Below, one piece after another: positions 21,177 to 27,080 of a stretch of 64,000 nucleotides of DNA. A program made the translations under genes and the position numbers. The notes beneath the pieces were generated by a model. The model was not told where the DNA came from, did no database searches, and worked only from the letters and a program-made list of their open reading frames with translations. Source of the stretch: Promethearchaeota archaeon (GTDB taxonomy: Archaea > Asgardarchaeota > Lokiarchaeia > Sigyniarchaeales > SOKP01); contig JAHPZE010000002.1 of NCBI GenBank assembly GCA_019058365.1, positions 266,991 to 330,990 on the forward strand, written 5' to 3'. Each line of letters begins with the position of its first letter. Positions within the stretch are counted from its first letter, which is position 1.

Positions 21177-21596
21177 TTAATGAAAAAGTACTTTTAGACC
21201 TAATTCTTTGTATAATAAATTTAGATTTAATTCAAATTGCCCTCTAACAATATCATAATGAGTGAATTTACCTTTTTTAAAACTTCTTATAAGCCCAACA
21301 CTTTCAAGAATTCGAAGATGATGTGATATAGATGGTTGTGATTTATCTAAGATTGCTTCTAGTTCGCAAACGCAATGATCATTTTCCTTTAATACAGTAA
21401 TTATCTTTAAACGCTCCTTATTTCCTAATGCATAACAAAATTGTGTTAATTTCTTAAAATTATCTTCGTTTTCTAAATTAATTCCGAAATCTTGCAAATC
21501 GTGGAAGTATGTCTTAACATCTATTTCACTCATATCAACGCAGCCTTCCAGGGAATCCATTATTTCAATAGCACGTCTTCTATTAATAATATTCAC
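21177..21596 (-). CDS. arsR: ArsR family As(III)-responsive repressor
   Basis: CVCEL...SQPSISHHLRIL; divergent from acr3. Confidence 0.85.
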   Translation of the reverse strand: MNIINRRRAIEIMDSLEGCVDMSEIDVKTYFHDLQDFGINLENEDNFKKLTQFCYALGNKERLKIITVLKENDHCVCELEAILDKSQPSISHHLRILESVGLIRSFKKGKFTHYDIVRGQFELNLNLLYKELGLKVLFH

Positions 21597-21792: not shown

Positions 21793-22848
21793 ATGAGTAT
21801 TTCAGAAACAGAAGAAATTTCAATAACAAATAAAGATGAATCAAAAAAACTCGGTTTATTCGAAAAATTACTTCCTCTATGGGTAGCACTATGCATTTTC
21901 ATAGGAATTCTCTTTTCCATATATATCCCAGGTATAAGTCAAACTATGAATACATTTACCATTGGTCAAATTTCATTACCGATTGGTATTTGTTTATTCC
22001 TAATGATGTATCCTGCAATGTTAAATTTACAAGTCTCAGAGTTAAAAAAATTAAGTAAAAATCCTAAACCTATAATTTTAACAATTCTATCTAATTGGGT
22101 GATCGCCCCTTTTGTAGGTTTGCTTATGGCACGTATCTTTCTACATGGATATGAGCAATTAATTGTCGCTGTTATTTTATTAAGCTCAAGTCCATGTACT
22201 GCTATGGTATTAGTCTGGGGATGGATGGCAAAAGGAAATCAAGAACAGAATGTGGTAAATACGAGCCTTAATACAATAACTATAATATTTGGATATGCTC
22301 CTATGGTTACATTATTAACAGGTATTCAGAATATTCCCATTGATTGGAAACCCCTAGTTTTATCAACGTTTGTCTTTATTGGACTTCCATTATTGCTTGG
22401 AATAATTAGTAAAAGGTTATTAATATCTACCAAAGGTAAAGAGTGGTTTAACAATACATATCGACCTATAGTTGGAAATGTATCGATTGTTGCTCTACTC
22501 ACAACATTAGTGGTTCTTTTCTCTATGAATGGAGAAGTCTTAAGTGATAATCCGGATCTTTTATTATTAGTATCAATTCCCCTATTGCTTGGATTTGTAA
22601 TTGTTGTTGGATACAACATTTTAGTTACGAAAGTATTTAAACTAAAATACAAGGAAGCTATAATCACAGTTATCATCGGGTCTTCCAGTCATTTCGAAAT
22701 TGCGATAGCAACTGCTATTGCAATATATGGGATAGGATCTATTGCTGCTTTAGGTACTACAATGGGGTTATTCTGGGAGGTTCCAGTTATGCTTTCAATT
22801 GTCTATTTAGGTAGGTGGCTAAGAAAAAGAAGTTTTTGGAAGTCCTAG
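21793..22848 (+). CDS. acr3: Acr3 arsenite efflux transporter
   Basis: MMYPAM, NWVIAP, PCTAMVLVW, SSHFEIAIA, EVPVML. Confidence 0.92.
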   Translation: MSISETEEISITNKDESKKLGLFEKLLPLWVALCIFIGILFSIYIPGISQTMNTFTIGQISLPIGICLFLMMYPAMLNLQVSELKKLSKNPKPIILTILSNWVIAPFVGLLMARIFLHGYEQLIVAVILLSSSPCTAMVLVWGWMAKGNQEQNVVNTSLNTITIIFGYAPMVTLLTGIQNIPIDWKPLVLSTFVFIGLPLLLGIISKRLLISTKGKEWFNNTYRPIVGNVSIVALLTTLVVLFSMNGEVLSDNPDLLLLVSIPLLLGFVIVVGYNILVTKVFKLKYKEAIITVIIGSSSHFEIAIATAIAIYGIGSIAALGTTMGLFWEVPVMLSIVYLGRWLRKRSFWKS

Positions 22849-22936
22849 TATTTTTGATTTTGAAATAAAATATCAATTAAAGAATAAAAATCTTGAAAAA
22901 TTAAAATGAATAAAATAAATTTCGGGTGTAATAAAA

Positions 22937-23215
22937 ATTAGTGAAGAAAATTCAGAAAAATTAAAAGTTGATATTTATGTCCCATTAGATGCTTGTTCGT
23001 GTGAATGGGATAAATTTATGAATCGAGTATTTGTTGAACTAACACCTTATATAAAATATATTGATTATGATACTAAGAATCTAAATTCAGAGGAAGCTAG
23101 GGAACTCAATCTTTACAATAAATGTGTAGTTGTAGATGGACAGAAAAAATTTTCGTCCTCTTTTACACTTAAAAAGGAATTACCGAACCTTCTTAAGGCT
23201 AAAGGATTTATTTAG
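22937..23215 (+). CDS. Small thioredoxin-fold/ArsD-like CxC protein, probable ATT (or ATA 22931) start
   Basis: Frame is open upstream of ATG 23018: SEENSEKLKVDIYVPLDACSCEWDKFMNR...CVVVDG. In-frame TAA at 22916-22918; GGGTG SD-like site at 22924-22928. Confidence 0.65.
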   Translation: MSEENSEKLKVDIYVPLDACSCEWDKFMNRVFVELTPYIKYIDYDTKNLNSEEARELNLYNKCVVVDGQKKFSSSFTLKKELPNLLKAKGFI

Positions 23216-23248
23216 ACTTTAGAATCTTTTTATTAAAATTTAATAAAG

Positions 23249-23725
23249 GTGAGTATAAAAATTAAAAAAATTAAGTTAACGGTTTTTGCTCCAGATCCCG
23301 AAAAGAAATTATCTAATGGTCTTGATTTCAATTTAAAAGTTGCTGATGATGGCTCGATTATCGATGTCTTAAGCAATCTAGATAAATATTTTTACGATAA
23401 TCCTGAAAACTCCATTTTCCCTATCTATAAAGGACTAATACACAGTTATCTTCAGCTCATATGGGATCCTGAAACGAATTTAATTTATGATGATTGTGCT
23501 GTAAACGCTTACGGACCAAATAAAGAATTCATGCCATTACATGAAGATATAAATTTTACTTTATATCCTGATAGTGAAATAACAATAGTAGTCCATGCTG
23601 ATTGATGAGCTGATGTTATGAAAGAACGATTGGATTATGGCACATTCAAACGGATTTTATTGAAAACTTATGGAAAAAACCACGAAACTTTTGCTCATTA
23701 TTTTAAAGATAAAAGAAATAACTAA
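23249..23725 (+). CDS. Beta-grasp/ubiquitin-like protein A, probable tandem-Sec selenoprotein (TGA TGA at 23603-23608)
   Basis: The ORF track stops at 23605, but the in-frame continuation ADVMKERLDYGTFKRILLKTYGKNHETFAHYFKDKRNN is homologous to paralogue B; SECIS-like element follows. Confidence 0.65.
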
Positions 23726-23728
23726 TAG

Positions 23729-23786
23729 GTTGAATGATGCCTTTCAAAAAATAATTGTGAAAGGTTGACAATAGGATTGCTTCCTA
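23729..23786 (+). ncRNA. SECIS-like K-turn element plus short hairpin
   Basis: ATGA(23734)-t-GCCTTTCA-aaaaataattg-TGAAAGGT-TGA(23766), then TAGGA-ttgct-TCCTA. Confidence 0.7.
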
Positions 23787-23842
23787 TAAATATAAATTTT
23801 AATCGAATTGTATAAATAAGCTGTCTTATTTTTAAAACATAT

Positions 23843-24841
23843 ATGGACTTTTTCACACATATGTTTATGGGGGTTTTAGCGGGTCTATTTTCATTAACCA
23901 AGTTAAGTCCAGAAGCTATTATCCTTATGTGGATTATGACCTTTTTACCAGATTTCGATGTCTTCTTAGGGCCACTCCAAAAAATAAGAAAAGCGTATTT
24001 TCTTTCGCATAAAGCTGGTTCTCATTCTTATATTATAGGATTTATTTTTACTGGAATTGTTAGTTTTTTTATATCTATATTTAGAAATGTTTTATTCATT
24101 GAGGTCTGGTTTGCTGGATTCATAGGATATAGTATCCATGTCTCATTAGATTTTTTTGCTGCTTCAAAAATACCAATTTTTTATCCAATCTCGAAAAGAG
24201 AATATAGATTAATTGCTGATAGAGCTGTTAATCCAATATTGATGATTTTTTCTTGTATAAATCTTCTGGTTTTAATAGCATTTTATTTTACATTACCTTA
24301 TTATCAAATACTTATGAACCTTGCTTTCTTTTATCTGTTTGTTTATCTAATATATTTTGTGATTAGAGCTTTTTTAAGAACTATAATACAGCTGAAAATT
24401 CCTAGAAATCAGAAATATATTCCTGGTCTTCTTCCATTTTACTATTTCATTTATGAAAAAATTTTGGATAATGAATCTACCACTTTTAATTTAAAAAAAA
24501 AATTTGTATTTTCATCTAAAAAACAAGATTTAATAAATCAAACAATTTCAAATGTTTCAGATGAATTCACCTTTTTTGAATTAGCTAAGCAAATTAGTCA
24601 AGAGTACAGATTTTATCATAAATGGAATTATGTTCTTCCTTTTATTCATGAAAATAAGGATTCAGTTAATGTTGTTTTGATCTTAGCTGAAAGTTTTTCA
24701 CAATCTCTCCGGCATAAATCAATTAAACGAGAAATGTCCTCTTATTATATCTCAATTCTTTTTGATAAAAGTTCAAAACAAGTAATTTCAAAAACTGAAG
24801 GATTTGGTTCTTTTAAGAAATGGGAAAACAAAGATTGGTAA
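23843..24841 (+). CDS. Membrane metal-dependent hydrolase (YdjM-like)
   Basis: MDFFTH, LPDFD, H..SHS, H..LD. Confidence 0.75.
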   Translation: MDFFTHMFMGVLAGLFSLTKLSPEAIILMWIMTFLPDFDVFLGPLQKIRKAYFLSHKAGSHSYIIGFIFTGIVSFFISIFRNVLFIEVWFAGFIGYSIHVSLDFFAASKIPIFYPISKREYRLIADRAVNPILMIFSCINLLVLIAFYFTLPYYQILMNLAFFYLFVYLIYFVIRAFLRTIIQLKIPRNQKYIPGLLPFYYFIYEKILDNESTTFNLKKKFVFSSKKQDLINQTISNVSDEFTFFELAKQISQEYRFYHKWNYVLPFIHENKDSVNVVLILAESFSQSLRHKSIKREMSSYYISILFDKSSKQVISKTEGFGSFKKWENKDW

Positions 24842-24938
24842 AATCAATGTTAATAATAATTTCTATTTAATAATGAAGATAAATGTCATTTTTCTAACAA
24901 TATTTTAATTATTTTGCATAAATATTATTTACTTAGAA

Positions 24939-25004
24939 TTTTCTTCAACATTCACACTAAAGAAAGAATTACCCAAACTTCTTAAAGCTAAAGGACTTAT
25001 TTAA
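24939..25004 (+). pseudogene. 3' remnant of the thioredoxin-like gene (duplicate of ~23150-23215)
   Basis: FSSTFTLKKELPKLLKAKGLI* versus FSSSFTLKKELPNLLKAKGFI*. Confidence 0.8.
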
Positions 25005-25037
25005 AATTTAGATATTTGATTTGAAATCTTAATAGGG

Positions 25038-25514
25038 GTGATTATTAAAATTAAAAAGATTACTTTTAAAATTAGTATACCTTCAATGGATTTACAAAAA
25101 GGCAAAGCATTTATTGTACAAGTAAAAGATGATGCTACTTTTGTTGAAGCTTTAGCAATGGTAGATAAATATATTTTTGAAAATCCGCATGAATCGATAT
25201 TTCCAATATATGAAGGTTATATTCATAATTATTTACAGTTGTTTTGGGACCCAGAACATAATATAATCTATGAAGATGTTGGGATAATGCCTTATGGTCC
25301 TGATGAAGAGGGTAATTTGAGAAGTTTTATGCCAATTCGAGATAATTTAGATTTCAACTTATTTCCTAACAGTGTTATAGATCTACAACCAGATTCTGGA
25401 TGTTGATGAGAAAAAGTGAGAACTCGGTTAGATATAGGTAAATTTAAATCTATTTTAAGAGAAAAATTTGGAAAATATAATAAGGTTTTTGATCATTATT
25501 TTAAATCTAAATAA
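25038..25514 (+). CDS. Beta-grasp/ubiquitin-like protein B, probable Cys-Sec-Sec selenoprotein (TGT TGA TGA at 25401-25409)
   Basis: In-frame continuation EKVRTRLDIGKFKSILREKFGKYNKVFDHYFKSK; SECIS-like element follows. Confidence 0.65.
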
Positions 25515-25520
25515 TATAGA

Positions 25521-25578
25521 ATTGAATGAGATCTTTTAGAAAATATTAGTAGAAGATTGACATTAGGAGAGCTTCCTA
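25521..25578 (+). ncRNA. SECIS-like K-turn element plus short hairpin
   Basis: ATGA(25526)-g-ATCTTTTA-gaaaatattag-TAGAAGAT-TGA(25558), then TAGGA-gagct-TCCTA. Confidence 0.7.
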
Positions 25579-25670: not shown

Positions 25671-27080
25671 ATGGAAAAAGTCAAATTTAAAGAAATAAGA
25701 AAATCACATAAAGGCATCACTAAGCTTTCTTATGAAGTTACTCAAATTTTAGGAAATGATCCGAATAGATCTCCGTTATATTCTTTATTATATGTAATAA
25801 ATAAGGAAGAAAATACTAAAGAAGAAATTTATAGCTATTTTAAATATTTCTATGTTAATGAATTTGCTAATATTAGGCTAAAACAACCTGAATTAGATGA
25901 TTTATTATTAGATGGAATTACTAAAACTTTAATTCAAAAACAAAACAATACTTATTCTTTAACTGAAAAAGGAAATGAAGTTTTAACTAAATGCAAAACA
26001 GTTAATTTAGTCACAAATAAAGCGTTAGGATTCTTTTTTAGTGAAAAAGTTGTTTTAATTTTCTCTTTAATTTGCTTAATTTTTATGAGTTCACTTAAAA
26101 TAATTGTTGGATTGAATGCAGGCAGTGATGCGTTATTTAACGAGGGTATTGAGAATTTTACAGATATAATAAAGATATTTATAATTACTTTAAGTATTAA
26201 ATTGGGGAAAGATAGGTTAGGGGCAATCGCAATCATTATTTTAATGTTGATAACAGGAATAAATTTGATAATAGCTTCGGTATTTTCAATTTTTCAAACC
26301 GATATTATTTCTCCATCATATTTTACGTTTATATTAATGTTTATCTCGATTTTACTAAACTTAATGTTGTTAGTTCTAAAAAATTTCGTTGGAAAATTAC
26401 AAGCCAATTTTGCATTACTCTCCGATGCTAAAGATAATGTAATTAATATTAGATTATCATTAGGAGTAATAATTGGACTAATTTTTGCATTATTTGGAAT
26501 TTATTGGGTAGATTCTATTGTTGGTATAGTAATTGCTAGTTTAATTATATTTGACGGGTTAGAGACACTACTAGCATTAATCAAATCTGGTGAGGATATT
26601 GATATTGACAGCTTTAAATTAAGCTTAGATAAAGCCTTTGAATTTAAAATTGCACATTGGATATTAGTGGTTATTGAAGAAGAAAGGCTTTCCATTCACC
26701 AATTAAATGAGAAATTTAATGAGTCTATTAACAAGGGATATGAAATTTTTGGTATTTGGGCAATATTTGGACTTTCTAGTATTGAAACATTTAGCATTCA
26801 ATATATTTTAAACCTTATGAAAAAAAGAGGTTTATTTTTTGAACAGGATAATAAAATATATCTTACTGATAAGGGGAAAAAGCAATATAATAATGCTTTA
26901 TCTCAAGAATTAAAGAGAGTTTCAAAAGATAAGAAAAAATATAAAGATTGGAAACCTCCAAGCACGATAGTAAGAGTTTTATGGTGTATTTTTGGAATTC
27001 TCACTCCAATTATCTTAATCATATTAACAATTTTTGTTGGACCAATTATTTATAATTTTATAATTGATTTAATTGGATGA
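25671..27080 (+). CDS. Cation diffusion facilitator-like membrane domain flanked by winged-helix-like domains
   Basis: KIIVG...GSDAL..EG.EN..D, ALLSDA and WVDSIVG; YSLTEKG and IYLTDKG wing motifs. Confidence 0.65.
   Translation: MEKVKFKEIRKSHKGITKLSYEVTQILGNDPNRSPLYSLLYVINKEENTKEEIYSYFKYFYVNEFANIRLKQPELDDLLLDGITKTLIQKQNNTYSLTEKGNEVLTKCKTVNLVTNKALGFFFSEKVVLIFSLICLIFMSSLKIIVGLNAGSDALFNEGIENFTDIIKIFIITLSIKLGKDRLGAIAIIILMLITGINLIIASVFSIFQTDIISPSYFTFILMFISILLNLMLLVLKNFVGKLQANFALLSDAKDNVINIRLSLGVIIGLIFALFGIYWVDSIVGIVIASLIIFDGLETLLALIKSGEDIDIDSFKLSLDKAFEFKIAHWILVVIEEERLSIHQLNEKFNESINKGYEIFGIWAIFGLSSIETFSIQYILNLMKKRGLFFEQDNKIYLTDKGKKQYNNALSQELKRVSKDKKKYKDWKPPSTIVRVLWCIFGILTPIILIILTIFVGPIIYNFIIDLIG

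Follow-up and report, generated by a model that had tools for sequence, protein, structure and literature searches.

The window analysed here is a stretch of 64,000 nucleotides (nt) from a Promethearchaeota archaeon of the class Lokiarchaeia (assembly GCA_019058365.1, contig JAHPZE010000002.1, positions 266,991 to 330,990 of the forward strand). It contains two paralogous genes that lie in an arsenic-resistance neighbourhood, are each interrupted by two consecutive in-frame TGA codons and are predicted to encode members of a new selenoprotein family. The genes and their TGA codons are located as follows (window coordinates; U, selenocysteine or Sec; aa, amino acids).

23261..23725 (+): paralogue 1, U-U-A type, 154 aa from ATT (158 aa from GTG 23249)
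23603..23608 (+): TGA TGA, predicted Sec-Sec of paralogue 1
25050..25514 (+): paralogue 2, C-U-U type, 154 aa from ATT (158 aa from GTG 25038)
25401..25409 (+): TGT TGA TGA, predicted Cys-Sec-Sec of paralogue 2

Two genes with tandem TGA codons

Paralogue 1 reads H-A-D-TGA-TGA and then 38 sense codons up to a TAA stop, and paralogue 2 reads S-G-C-TGA-TGA and then 34 sense codons, likewise up to TAA; the coordinates and codon counts of the first-pass annotation, made from the sequence alone, are thus confirmed for both open frames. The products share 44% identity (E 4e-48) in an alignment that, as had been claimed, crosses the stops without a gap and places D-U-U-A of paralogue 1 opposite G-C-U-U of paralogue 2, the first TGA facing a Cys. 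These are the only copies of the gene in the assembly. An end at TGA-TGA with at least 30 open codons behind it was found in 5 of the 4,396 long open reading frames (ORFs) of the genome, namely paralogues 1 and 2 and three others. By itself, this pattern is not rare and not decisive; recoding is considered to exceed chance because the TGA pair is conserved among the genomes of the class. Genome-wide reassignment of TGA was rejected, as TGA is the normal stop codon of 825 long ORFs and of 23 of the 82 distinct family genes compared below, and sequencing error was also rejected as the cause of the in-frame TGA pair.

The strongest local evidence for recoding is provided by hairpins of the selenocysteine insertion sequence (SECIS) type, each followed by a second, smaller hairpin.

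23734..23768 (+): lokiSECIS 1, AUGA, 9-bp stem, 11-nt A-rich loop ending in G, GA
23772..23786 (+): second small conserved hairpin 3' of SECIS 1
25526..25560 (+): lokiSECIS 2, AUGA, 9-bp stem, 11-nt loop ending in AG, GA
25564..25578 (+): second small conserved hairpin 3' of SECIS 2

The lokiSECIS geometry of Mariotti et al. (PMC4989117) comprises AUGA, a 9-bp stem, an 11-nt loop with a final G, and GA. The criteria applied here were AUGA before and GA or AA after a 9-bp stem, an 11-nt loop with an A-rich start and a final G, and a position just 3' of the stop codon. Both elements, which begin 11 and 14 bases from the start of the respective TAA stops, fit the published geometry exactly; no SECIS model in Rfam fits them, and the search gave chance hits only. 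A genome scan with the published geometry, which was used instead of a looser and unspecific pattern (369 hits), yielded 17 matches (3–10 in shuffled sequences), including HdrA, three VhuD genes, and paralogues 1 and 2. The strict element is present behind 52 of the 82 distinct family genes vs. none of 469 neighbouring ORFs, and a relaxed pattern behind 70 of the 82 vs. 15 of the 469. Several genes without a SECIS of their own are the first member of a tandem pair, and the P-M-C-U-U gene of one Lokiarchaeia genome (G016:C1:3628649-3629119, minus strand) matched none of the SECIS patterns used. In 58 elements selected without a pairing filter, stem positions 2–9 are paired in 92% of cells, compared with 44–53% in slid registers and a mean of 74% (maximum, 78%) after partner shuffling, which does not yield a probability, because the shuffled sequences are kin. 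A-U, G-C, and C-G pairs alternate at the same stem position across elements, i.e. the stem shows covariation. The small hairpin 3' of the SECIS is conserved in this genome family; none was seen behind the HdrA and VhuD elements, for which few downstream bases were compared.

The genome encodes the components required for Sec synthesis and insertion, the presence of which had been proposed as a check. SepSecS and EFSec are located on the contig of the window itself, and PSTK and two SelD genes, each with an in-frame TGA, were identified in the genome; SepSecS and SelD scored above the profile cut-offs, and EFSec (3e-71) and PSTK (9e-44) beneath them. A tRNA-Sec gene with a UCA anticodon and two introns was found upstream of SepSecS by using the genes of relatives.

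G000:C34:about 23029-23181 (L141): tRNA-Sec, with introns in the D arm and T loop

Neither the Rfam model RF01852 nor Aragorn detected a tRNA-Sec, because the gene is interrupted by these introns. Other tRNAs of the genome seemingly bear introns as well, and a partial tRNA-Sec-like stretch is present at C34:22634.

The first-pass annotation had given both readthrough products as 158 aa, counted from GTG codons at 23249 and 25038. Their equal length holds, but 154 aa is the likelier value: both GTG starts were rejected, as they are part of the Shine-Dalgarno sequences listed here and the ATT column downstream is conserved.

23248..23253 (+): GGTGAG, Shine-Dalgarno sequence of paralogue 1, including the GTG formerly used as start
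25035..25041 (+): GGGGTGA, Shine-Dalgarno sequence of paralogue 2

In both paralogues, ATT (23261 and 25050) is found 7–8 nt downstream of this sequence. Most orthologues in the same genome family have a Shine-Dalgarno motif followed by ATT (in some cases ATA) after 7–9 nt, some have an in-frame stop immediately ahead of the ATT or ATA, and this alignment column is occupied by ATG, TTG, or GTG in distant Lokiarchaeia families. Both genes probably start at AUU, giving products of 154 aa each, and AUU appears to be a conserved start codon across the whole family of genomes.

Distribution, motif variants, and selection

With a single query, the gene was found in 138 of 161 Lokiarchaeia genomes, representing all seven families of the class, and the named contigs that carry it are those of Promethearchaeota/Lokiarchaeia. 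Among the 150 matches listed for the 161 genomes, all but two contain at least two in-frame TGA codons, and the two exceptions are fragments ending ahead of the motif. This conservation of the TGA pair across the class upholds the proposal of a new selenoprotein family. The 82 distinct genes were classified into 64 of the C-U-U, 11 of the U-U-A, and 7 of the U-G-U-U type; G-U-U-U was found in two metagenomic contigs. No TAA or TAG was found at the motif in the homologues examined, and the true stops of the 82 genes are 49 TAA, 23 TGA, and 10 TAG. The first motif column contains Cys in the C-U-U and Bathyarchaeia proteins and TGA in the U-U-A and U-U-U types, so that the Cys/TGA interchange to be looked for at three positions is seen in this column; columns 2 and 3 have no Cys counterpart in the sequences compared. 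The dN/dS ratio (nonsynonymous to synonymous substitution rates), expected to be below 1 across the stops, is 0.08–0.10 in the tail after the TGA pair and 0.10–0.14 ahead of it, indicating purifying selection on the tail.

A search of 1.84 billion proteins returned 93 matches, most of which are Loki proteins ending at the first TGA. The remainder are full-length Sec-free homologues and, where named, are hypothetical proteins of Bathyarchaeia (profile E down to 2e-19; e.g. UCH02879.1, MEM2920734.1, and MFP3985191.1). The Bathyarchaeia homologues have just one Cys, which occupies the first motif column, is often preceded by G-G, and is followed by residues such as I-T-E or S-T-D. They contain the domain and the first tail helix in one ORF, with a shorter tail. 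Because these Sec-free proteins run into the same tail helix in one ORF, the tail is considered to belong to the protein. In other Asgard classes, profile matches were marginal (7 of 239 genomes, E 4e-4 to 0.014 per genome), and the family was not found there with this query. Taken together, these computational data predict with near certainty that paralogues 1 and 2 decode both UGA codons as Sec.

Several unusual family members were also observed. A Sec-free homologue (L084:1274-2216), an apparent loss of Sec as judged from its sequence, has C-V-S at the motif, no space for a SECIS, and a position directly ahead of a NifU-like gene. Three homologues (P0055, P0077, and P0121) retain the domain and tail and lack the whole chalcogen motif. 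The L116 gene contains a third in-frame TGA at a conserved Gly codon ten codons past the motif, which may represent a sequencing error, a mutation, or an extra Sec. One contig with a Lokiarchaeia locus, L075 (DATKTW010000027.1), is filed under a bacterial metagenome-assembled genome (Nanopelagicaceae) and is probably mis-binned or mis-named.

Predicted fold and putative three-donor site

Two AlphaFold models, computed with U as C, agree with each other (predicted local distance difference test score, pLDDT, 88–89; 88.9) and contain a beta-grasp domain (residues 5–118 in the 158-aa numbering), the motif loop, and a two-helix tail, in accord with the ubiquitin-like fold proposed initially. The motif loop is the least confident part (pLDDT 70). 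The best structural matches were SAMP1 (Z 7.3, root-mean-square deviation 3.3, 86 residues), the transcobalamin beta domain, CysO, and MoaD; all top matches are beta-grasp proteins, with middling Z scores (5.4–7.3) that bear on the fold only. A Foldseek search of the PDB produced weak beta-grasp rows but nothing that reached E 0.001, and a PDB sequence search gave nothing below E 0.2. An Atlas feature search with a Bathyarchaeia homologue pointed to an unnamed Bathyarchaeota cluster (0.88) and to ThiS/MoaD (0.81), both of which are leads only. Because the C-termini of SAMP1 and ubiquitin map onto model residue 124, the motif is assigned to the diglycine position of these proteins, where the first-pass annotation had placed it. 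A free C-terminal Gly-Gly is absent, and G-C-U-U or D-U-U-A is found instead, followed by 32–53 residues.

A candidate third ligand was identified in paralogue 1.

23495..23497 (+): sole Cys of paralogue 1 (Y-D-D-C, start of strand 3)

This strand-3 Cys is present in 10 of the 11 U-U-A-type genes vs. about 2 of the 64 C-U-U genes, and Asp80, also at the start of strand 3, is near-invariant. Beta-grasp domains have the beginning of strand 3 next to the end of their last strand, and with this topology the Cys would be close to the Sec pair; it apparently compensates for the motif Cys lost in the U-U-A subfamily. Cys and Sec residues total exactly three in 54 of the 82 genes, and the sequences suggest a conserved three-donor site.

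Gene neighbourhood and possible functions

The following genes surround the two paralogues.

21177..21596 (-): arsR-family metalloregulator, divergent from the operon (Pfam HTH_5, 1e-15; NCBIfam NF033788, over cut-off)
21793..22848 (+): acr3 arsenite efflux transporter (TIGR00832, 283.7 bits, over cut-off)
22931..23215 (+): small conserved C-x-C protein of about 93–95 aa, with a probable ATA/ATT start (not in the ORF list)
23843..24841 (+): YdjM-family membrane protein between the paralogues (PF04307, 7e-16)
24935..25004 (+): degenerate copy of the 3' end of the C-x-C gene, ahead of paralogue 2 (aligned with 23150-23215)
25671..27080 (+): cation diffusion facilitator (CDF; metal efflux) with winged-helix domains (PF01545, 7e-12)

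The order in the window is arsR, acr3, C-x-C protein, paralogue 1, ydjM, C-x-C remnant, paralogue 2, and CDF transporter; from its sequence, the remnant would be a trace of duplication or rearrangement. In many loci, the gene for the C-x-C protein immediately precedes the Sec gene. The protein is fused to ArsM in L113 and is a marker of the Loki ars/hgc operon; it has no Pfam or NCBIfam match, and from its residue pattern we would guess that it is thioredoxin-like. The YdjM gene recurs beside the Sec gene in 11 loci, and a CDF gene follows it in 7. The operons of relatives also contain genes for ArsM, ArsC, ArsP, DUF166, and DGC proteins. In some, a methyltransferase is fused to HgcA, with N-V-W-C-A-A as the cap-helix motif, and an HgcB-like ferredoxin comes next (scores below the NCBIfam cut-offs). 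This S-adenosylmethionine (SAM)-methyltransferase-HgcA-like corrinoid fusion and its ferredoxin partner were observed in arsR-acr3 operons at L077:2940-4959 and in L076, L078, L111, L114, L116-L118, and L124. Bacterial hgcAB genes under ArsR control together with ars genes are known (10.1101/2022.10.17.512643). As counted from the listed coordinates, which give a lower bound owing to broken contigs, acr3 lies within 8 kb of the gene in 84 of the 104 genomes of this family (10 of 13 genera) and in 2 of the 4 genomes of family f4. No E1-like gene recurs among the neighbours, and those of the Bathyarchaeia homologues are moeA, ribosomal genes, or a heavy-metal ATPase-like/HMA cluster.

Two further candidate selenoprotein genes, each encoding an N-terminal hydrophobic helix, were observed in the genome. 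An 88-aa ORF (G000:C16:318228-318494 (+), L139:629-895) contains G-C-G-U-G-G and is followed by a lokiSECIS-like hairpin; it has a match in 15 of 53 congeners, each with one in-frame TGA, and is a candidate for a further undescribed selenoprotein. A 99-aa ORF (G000:C35:296900-297199 (+), L140:401-700) contains D-C-F-U, has a GUGA-type SECIS-like hairpin over its end, and retains the TGA in four congeners; it would be a second such candidate.

For the two paralogues, we propose that translation, probably from AUU, would proceed through the two consecutive UGA codons as Sec, each gene using its own 3' lokiSECIS. The product would be a 154-aa soluble protein with a MoaD/SAMP-like beta-grasp domain, the diglycine end of which is replaced by a chalcogen loop and two helices. 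This loop would supply three soft donors, as C-U-U, U-U-U, or U-G-U-U or as U-U together with a Cys of the neighbouring strand, and may bind As(III) or a different soft metal(loid) ion, e.g. Hg(II). In the manner of a metallochaperone or ion buffer, the protein may take up the ion and pass it to Acr3, ArsM, or HgcAB where the gene has joined the operon. Soft-metalloid binding and hand-off are favoured because of the conserved donor count and the operon; the joint occurrence of all steps, i.e. recoding, three-chalcogen binding of As(III)/Hg(II), and hand-off, stands close to an even chance. More tentatively, and with something short of an even chance, the family would represent a near-universal Lokiarchaeia selenium-based metalloid chaperone on a sulfur-carrier scaffold, with two to three consecutive Sec residues served by one eukaryote-like SECIS without SBP2 and forming a novel three-chalcogen site from which As(III)/Hg(II) would pass to export and methylation enzymes.

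Several points weigh against metalloid binding and hand-off. Three adjacent residues on one ion may be strained, the motif loop is modelled with a pLDDT of 70, and the fold matches are middling (Z under 8), a shared modelled fold indicating no function. Linkage to acr3 is absent from families f3, f5, f6, and f7 (0 of 14 genomes), so that the arsenic role suggested in the first-pass annotation is backed by linkage in this family and f4 and not in those four; three unlinked genomes are single-contig assemblies in which acr3 is more than 1.5 Mb away. The acr3-linked genomes are close kin, and the 84 cases may represent one event. Outside the ars-linked lineages, the gene is found beside aldehyde:ferredoxin oxidoreductase (AOR) and ferredoxin genes, CDF transporters, or unrelated genes, and the Bathyarchaeia homologues, with their single Cys, occur in varied neighbourhoods. 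The family may have been recruited to arsenic handling secondarily, and its ancestral function is possibly distinct from the one in the ars/hgc operon.

The alternative that survives best, although we regard it as unlikely, is a redox shuttle in which two vicinal residues, Cys-Sec or Sec-Sec, alternate between the reduced form and a selenenylsulfide or diselenide and restore ArsC, ArsM, the C-x-C neighbour, or ferredoxin-linked enzymes to the reduced state. The tail of mammalian thioredoxin reductase is Gly-Cys-Sec-Gly, a shuttle-like resemblance, and the G-C-U sequence in an exposed loop, together with neighbours that need a reductant (ArsC, ArsM, HgcB, ferredoxins, AOR, and Hdr-linked genes), is consistent with such a role, as is the near-ubiquity of the gene in the class whatever the operon. 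Known selenoproteins are, moreover, mostly redox enzymes (PMC13188914). However, the conserved and apparently compensated third chalcogen would be superfluous for a two-centre pair, the protein has neither a thioredoxin fold nor a CxxU motif, and no dedicated reductase is conserved alongside the gene.

Rather improbable is descent from MoaD/SAMP with retention of a sulfur or selenium carrier function, a loop persulfide or perselenide being donated to tungsto/molybdopterin, Fe-S, or selenophosphate synthesis. The fold is nearest to SAMP1, CysO, MoaD, and Urm1, with the motif at the thiocarboxylate position, and several Bathyarchaeia homologues retain G-G-C; one Bathyarchaeia homologue is encoded immediately ahead of moeA-moeA, and another is found close to an SBP_bac_11 ABC transporter. 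AOR and ferredoxin neighbours in families f2 and f5, the overlap of the Sec-free C-V-S homologue with the NifU gene, and a gene copy 2 kb from SepSecS point in the same direction. These contexts are, however, scattered single cases set against the strong ars/hgc linkage in the largest family, and the Loki proteins have no free C-terminus or diglycine, so that E1/MoeB chemistry would be impossible without cleavage.

A role in selenium sensing or storage, in which the tandem UGA and AUU start make the full-length product steeply selenium-dependent and the short and full products differ in function, is very unlikely: the tandem UGA, the conserved weak start codon, and a short product that would be a complete beta-grasp domain accord with it, but each protein contains just two to three Sec residues, and head and tail are equally selected. 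The absence of recoding, with a protein ending at the first TGA (C-terminal Cys or Asp), the second TGA as a backup stop, and the tail as a separate ORF or non-coding sequence, is barely credible, even though all gene callers terminate the protein at the first TGA and 51 of the 82 genes have an NTG codon no more than six codons past the TGA pair: the other 31 have no such start, the motif is never TAA or TAG while true stops use all three codons, the SECIS would be left without any other client, U-U-U variants occur, and in the Bathyarchaeia and C-V-S homologues a single ORF includes the tail. Independent tail ORFs were rejected on the basis of these 31 genes and one-ORF homologues, and translational coupling through the ATG within TGATGA was rejected because this ATG opens a median of only six codons. 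The observations named beforehand as contrary to recoding, namely TAA or TAG at the motif, an independent tail ORF, and a lack of the machinery, were not made.

The lokiSECIS selenoproteins described to date (SelD, HdrA, VhuD/FrhD, VhuU/FrhA, PrxL, AhpF-N-like, and DsbA-like; PMC4989117, PMC11227280) use the same 3' element and machinery, and they also include proteins with several Sec residues and SECIS elements that overlap a UGA stop or are seemingly shared by tandem genes. Unlike these seven Asgard families, among which it is not included, the present family is non-homologous, has a beta-grasp fold, and contains adjacent Sec residues, up to three in a row; being found in about 86% of class genomes, it is about as widespread as SelD. 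With MoaD, ThiS, SAMP1, CysO, and Urm1 it shares the beta-grasp fold (Z 5.4-7.3), the motif at the C-terminal diglycine position, and, in some Bathyarchaeia relatives, G-G before the Cys, but it differs from them in the lack of a terminal Gly-Gly or free carboxyl end, the 32-53-residue helical extension, the presence of Sec, and the lack of a Pfam ThiS match. ArsD, an arsenite chaperone, and the HgcB and MerA tails have vicinal Cys-Cys. The present proteins resemble them in having vicinal donors plus a third chalcogen in ars/hgc operons and in the putative working mode, but their fold and sequence are unrelated and Sec replaces Cys. Vicinal Cys-Sec and arsenic or mercury neighbourhoods are shared with bacterial SaoC, SaoL, and MbdU (C-U motifs), Sec-HgcA/HgcB, Sec-ArsM, and DUF166 (PMC13188914), from which the family differs in being archaeal, in having no match to their NCBIfam models, and in its U-U adjacency. 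Neither protein had a match in Pfam or NCBIfam (June 2026) at E up to 1. The family is absent from the 119 prokaryotic selenoprotein families of a 2026 review, in which a U-U motif is listed for none (PMC13188914), and our literature searches, with subscription papers outside their coverage, found no published description. Surveys that need known families or Sec/Cys pairs (PMC4989117, PMC11227280) may have missed it for that reason.

The recoding mechanism is known; what is new is the family, the motif, and the fold for a selenoprotein. The family would be the eighth of Asgard selenoproteins, with no bacterial counterpart found in the searches made, and it indicates that searches requiring Cys homologues or known families overlook real selenoproteins. 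Conservation of the U-U and U-U-U runs implies that Sec is inserted processively at successive codons, directed by a eukaryote-like SECIS in the absence of SBP2; this is relevant to the question of how Sec recoding reached eukaryotes from archaea. If the metalloid role is true, selenium would be tied to both arsenic detoxification and mercury methylation in these abundant sediment archaea.

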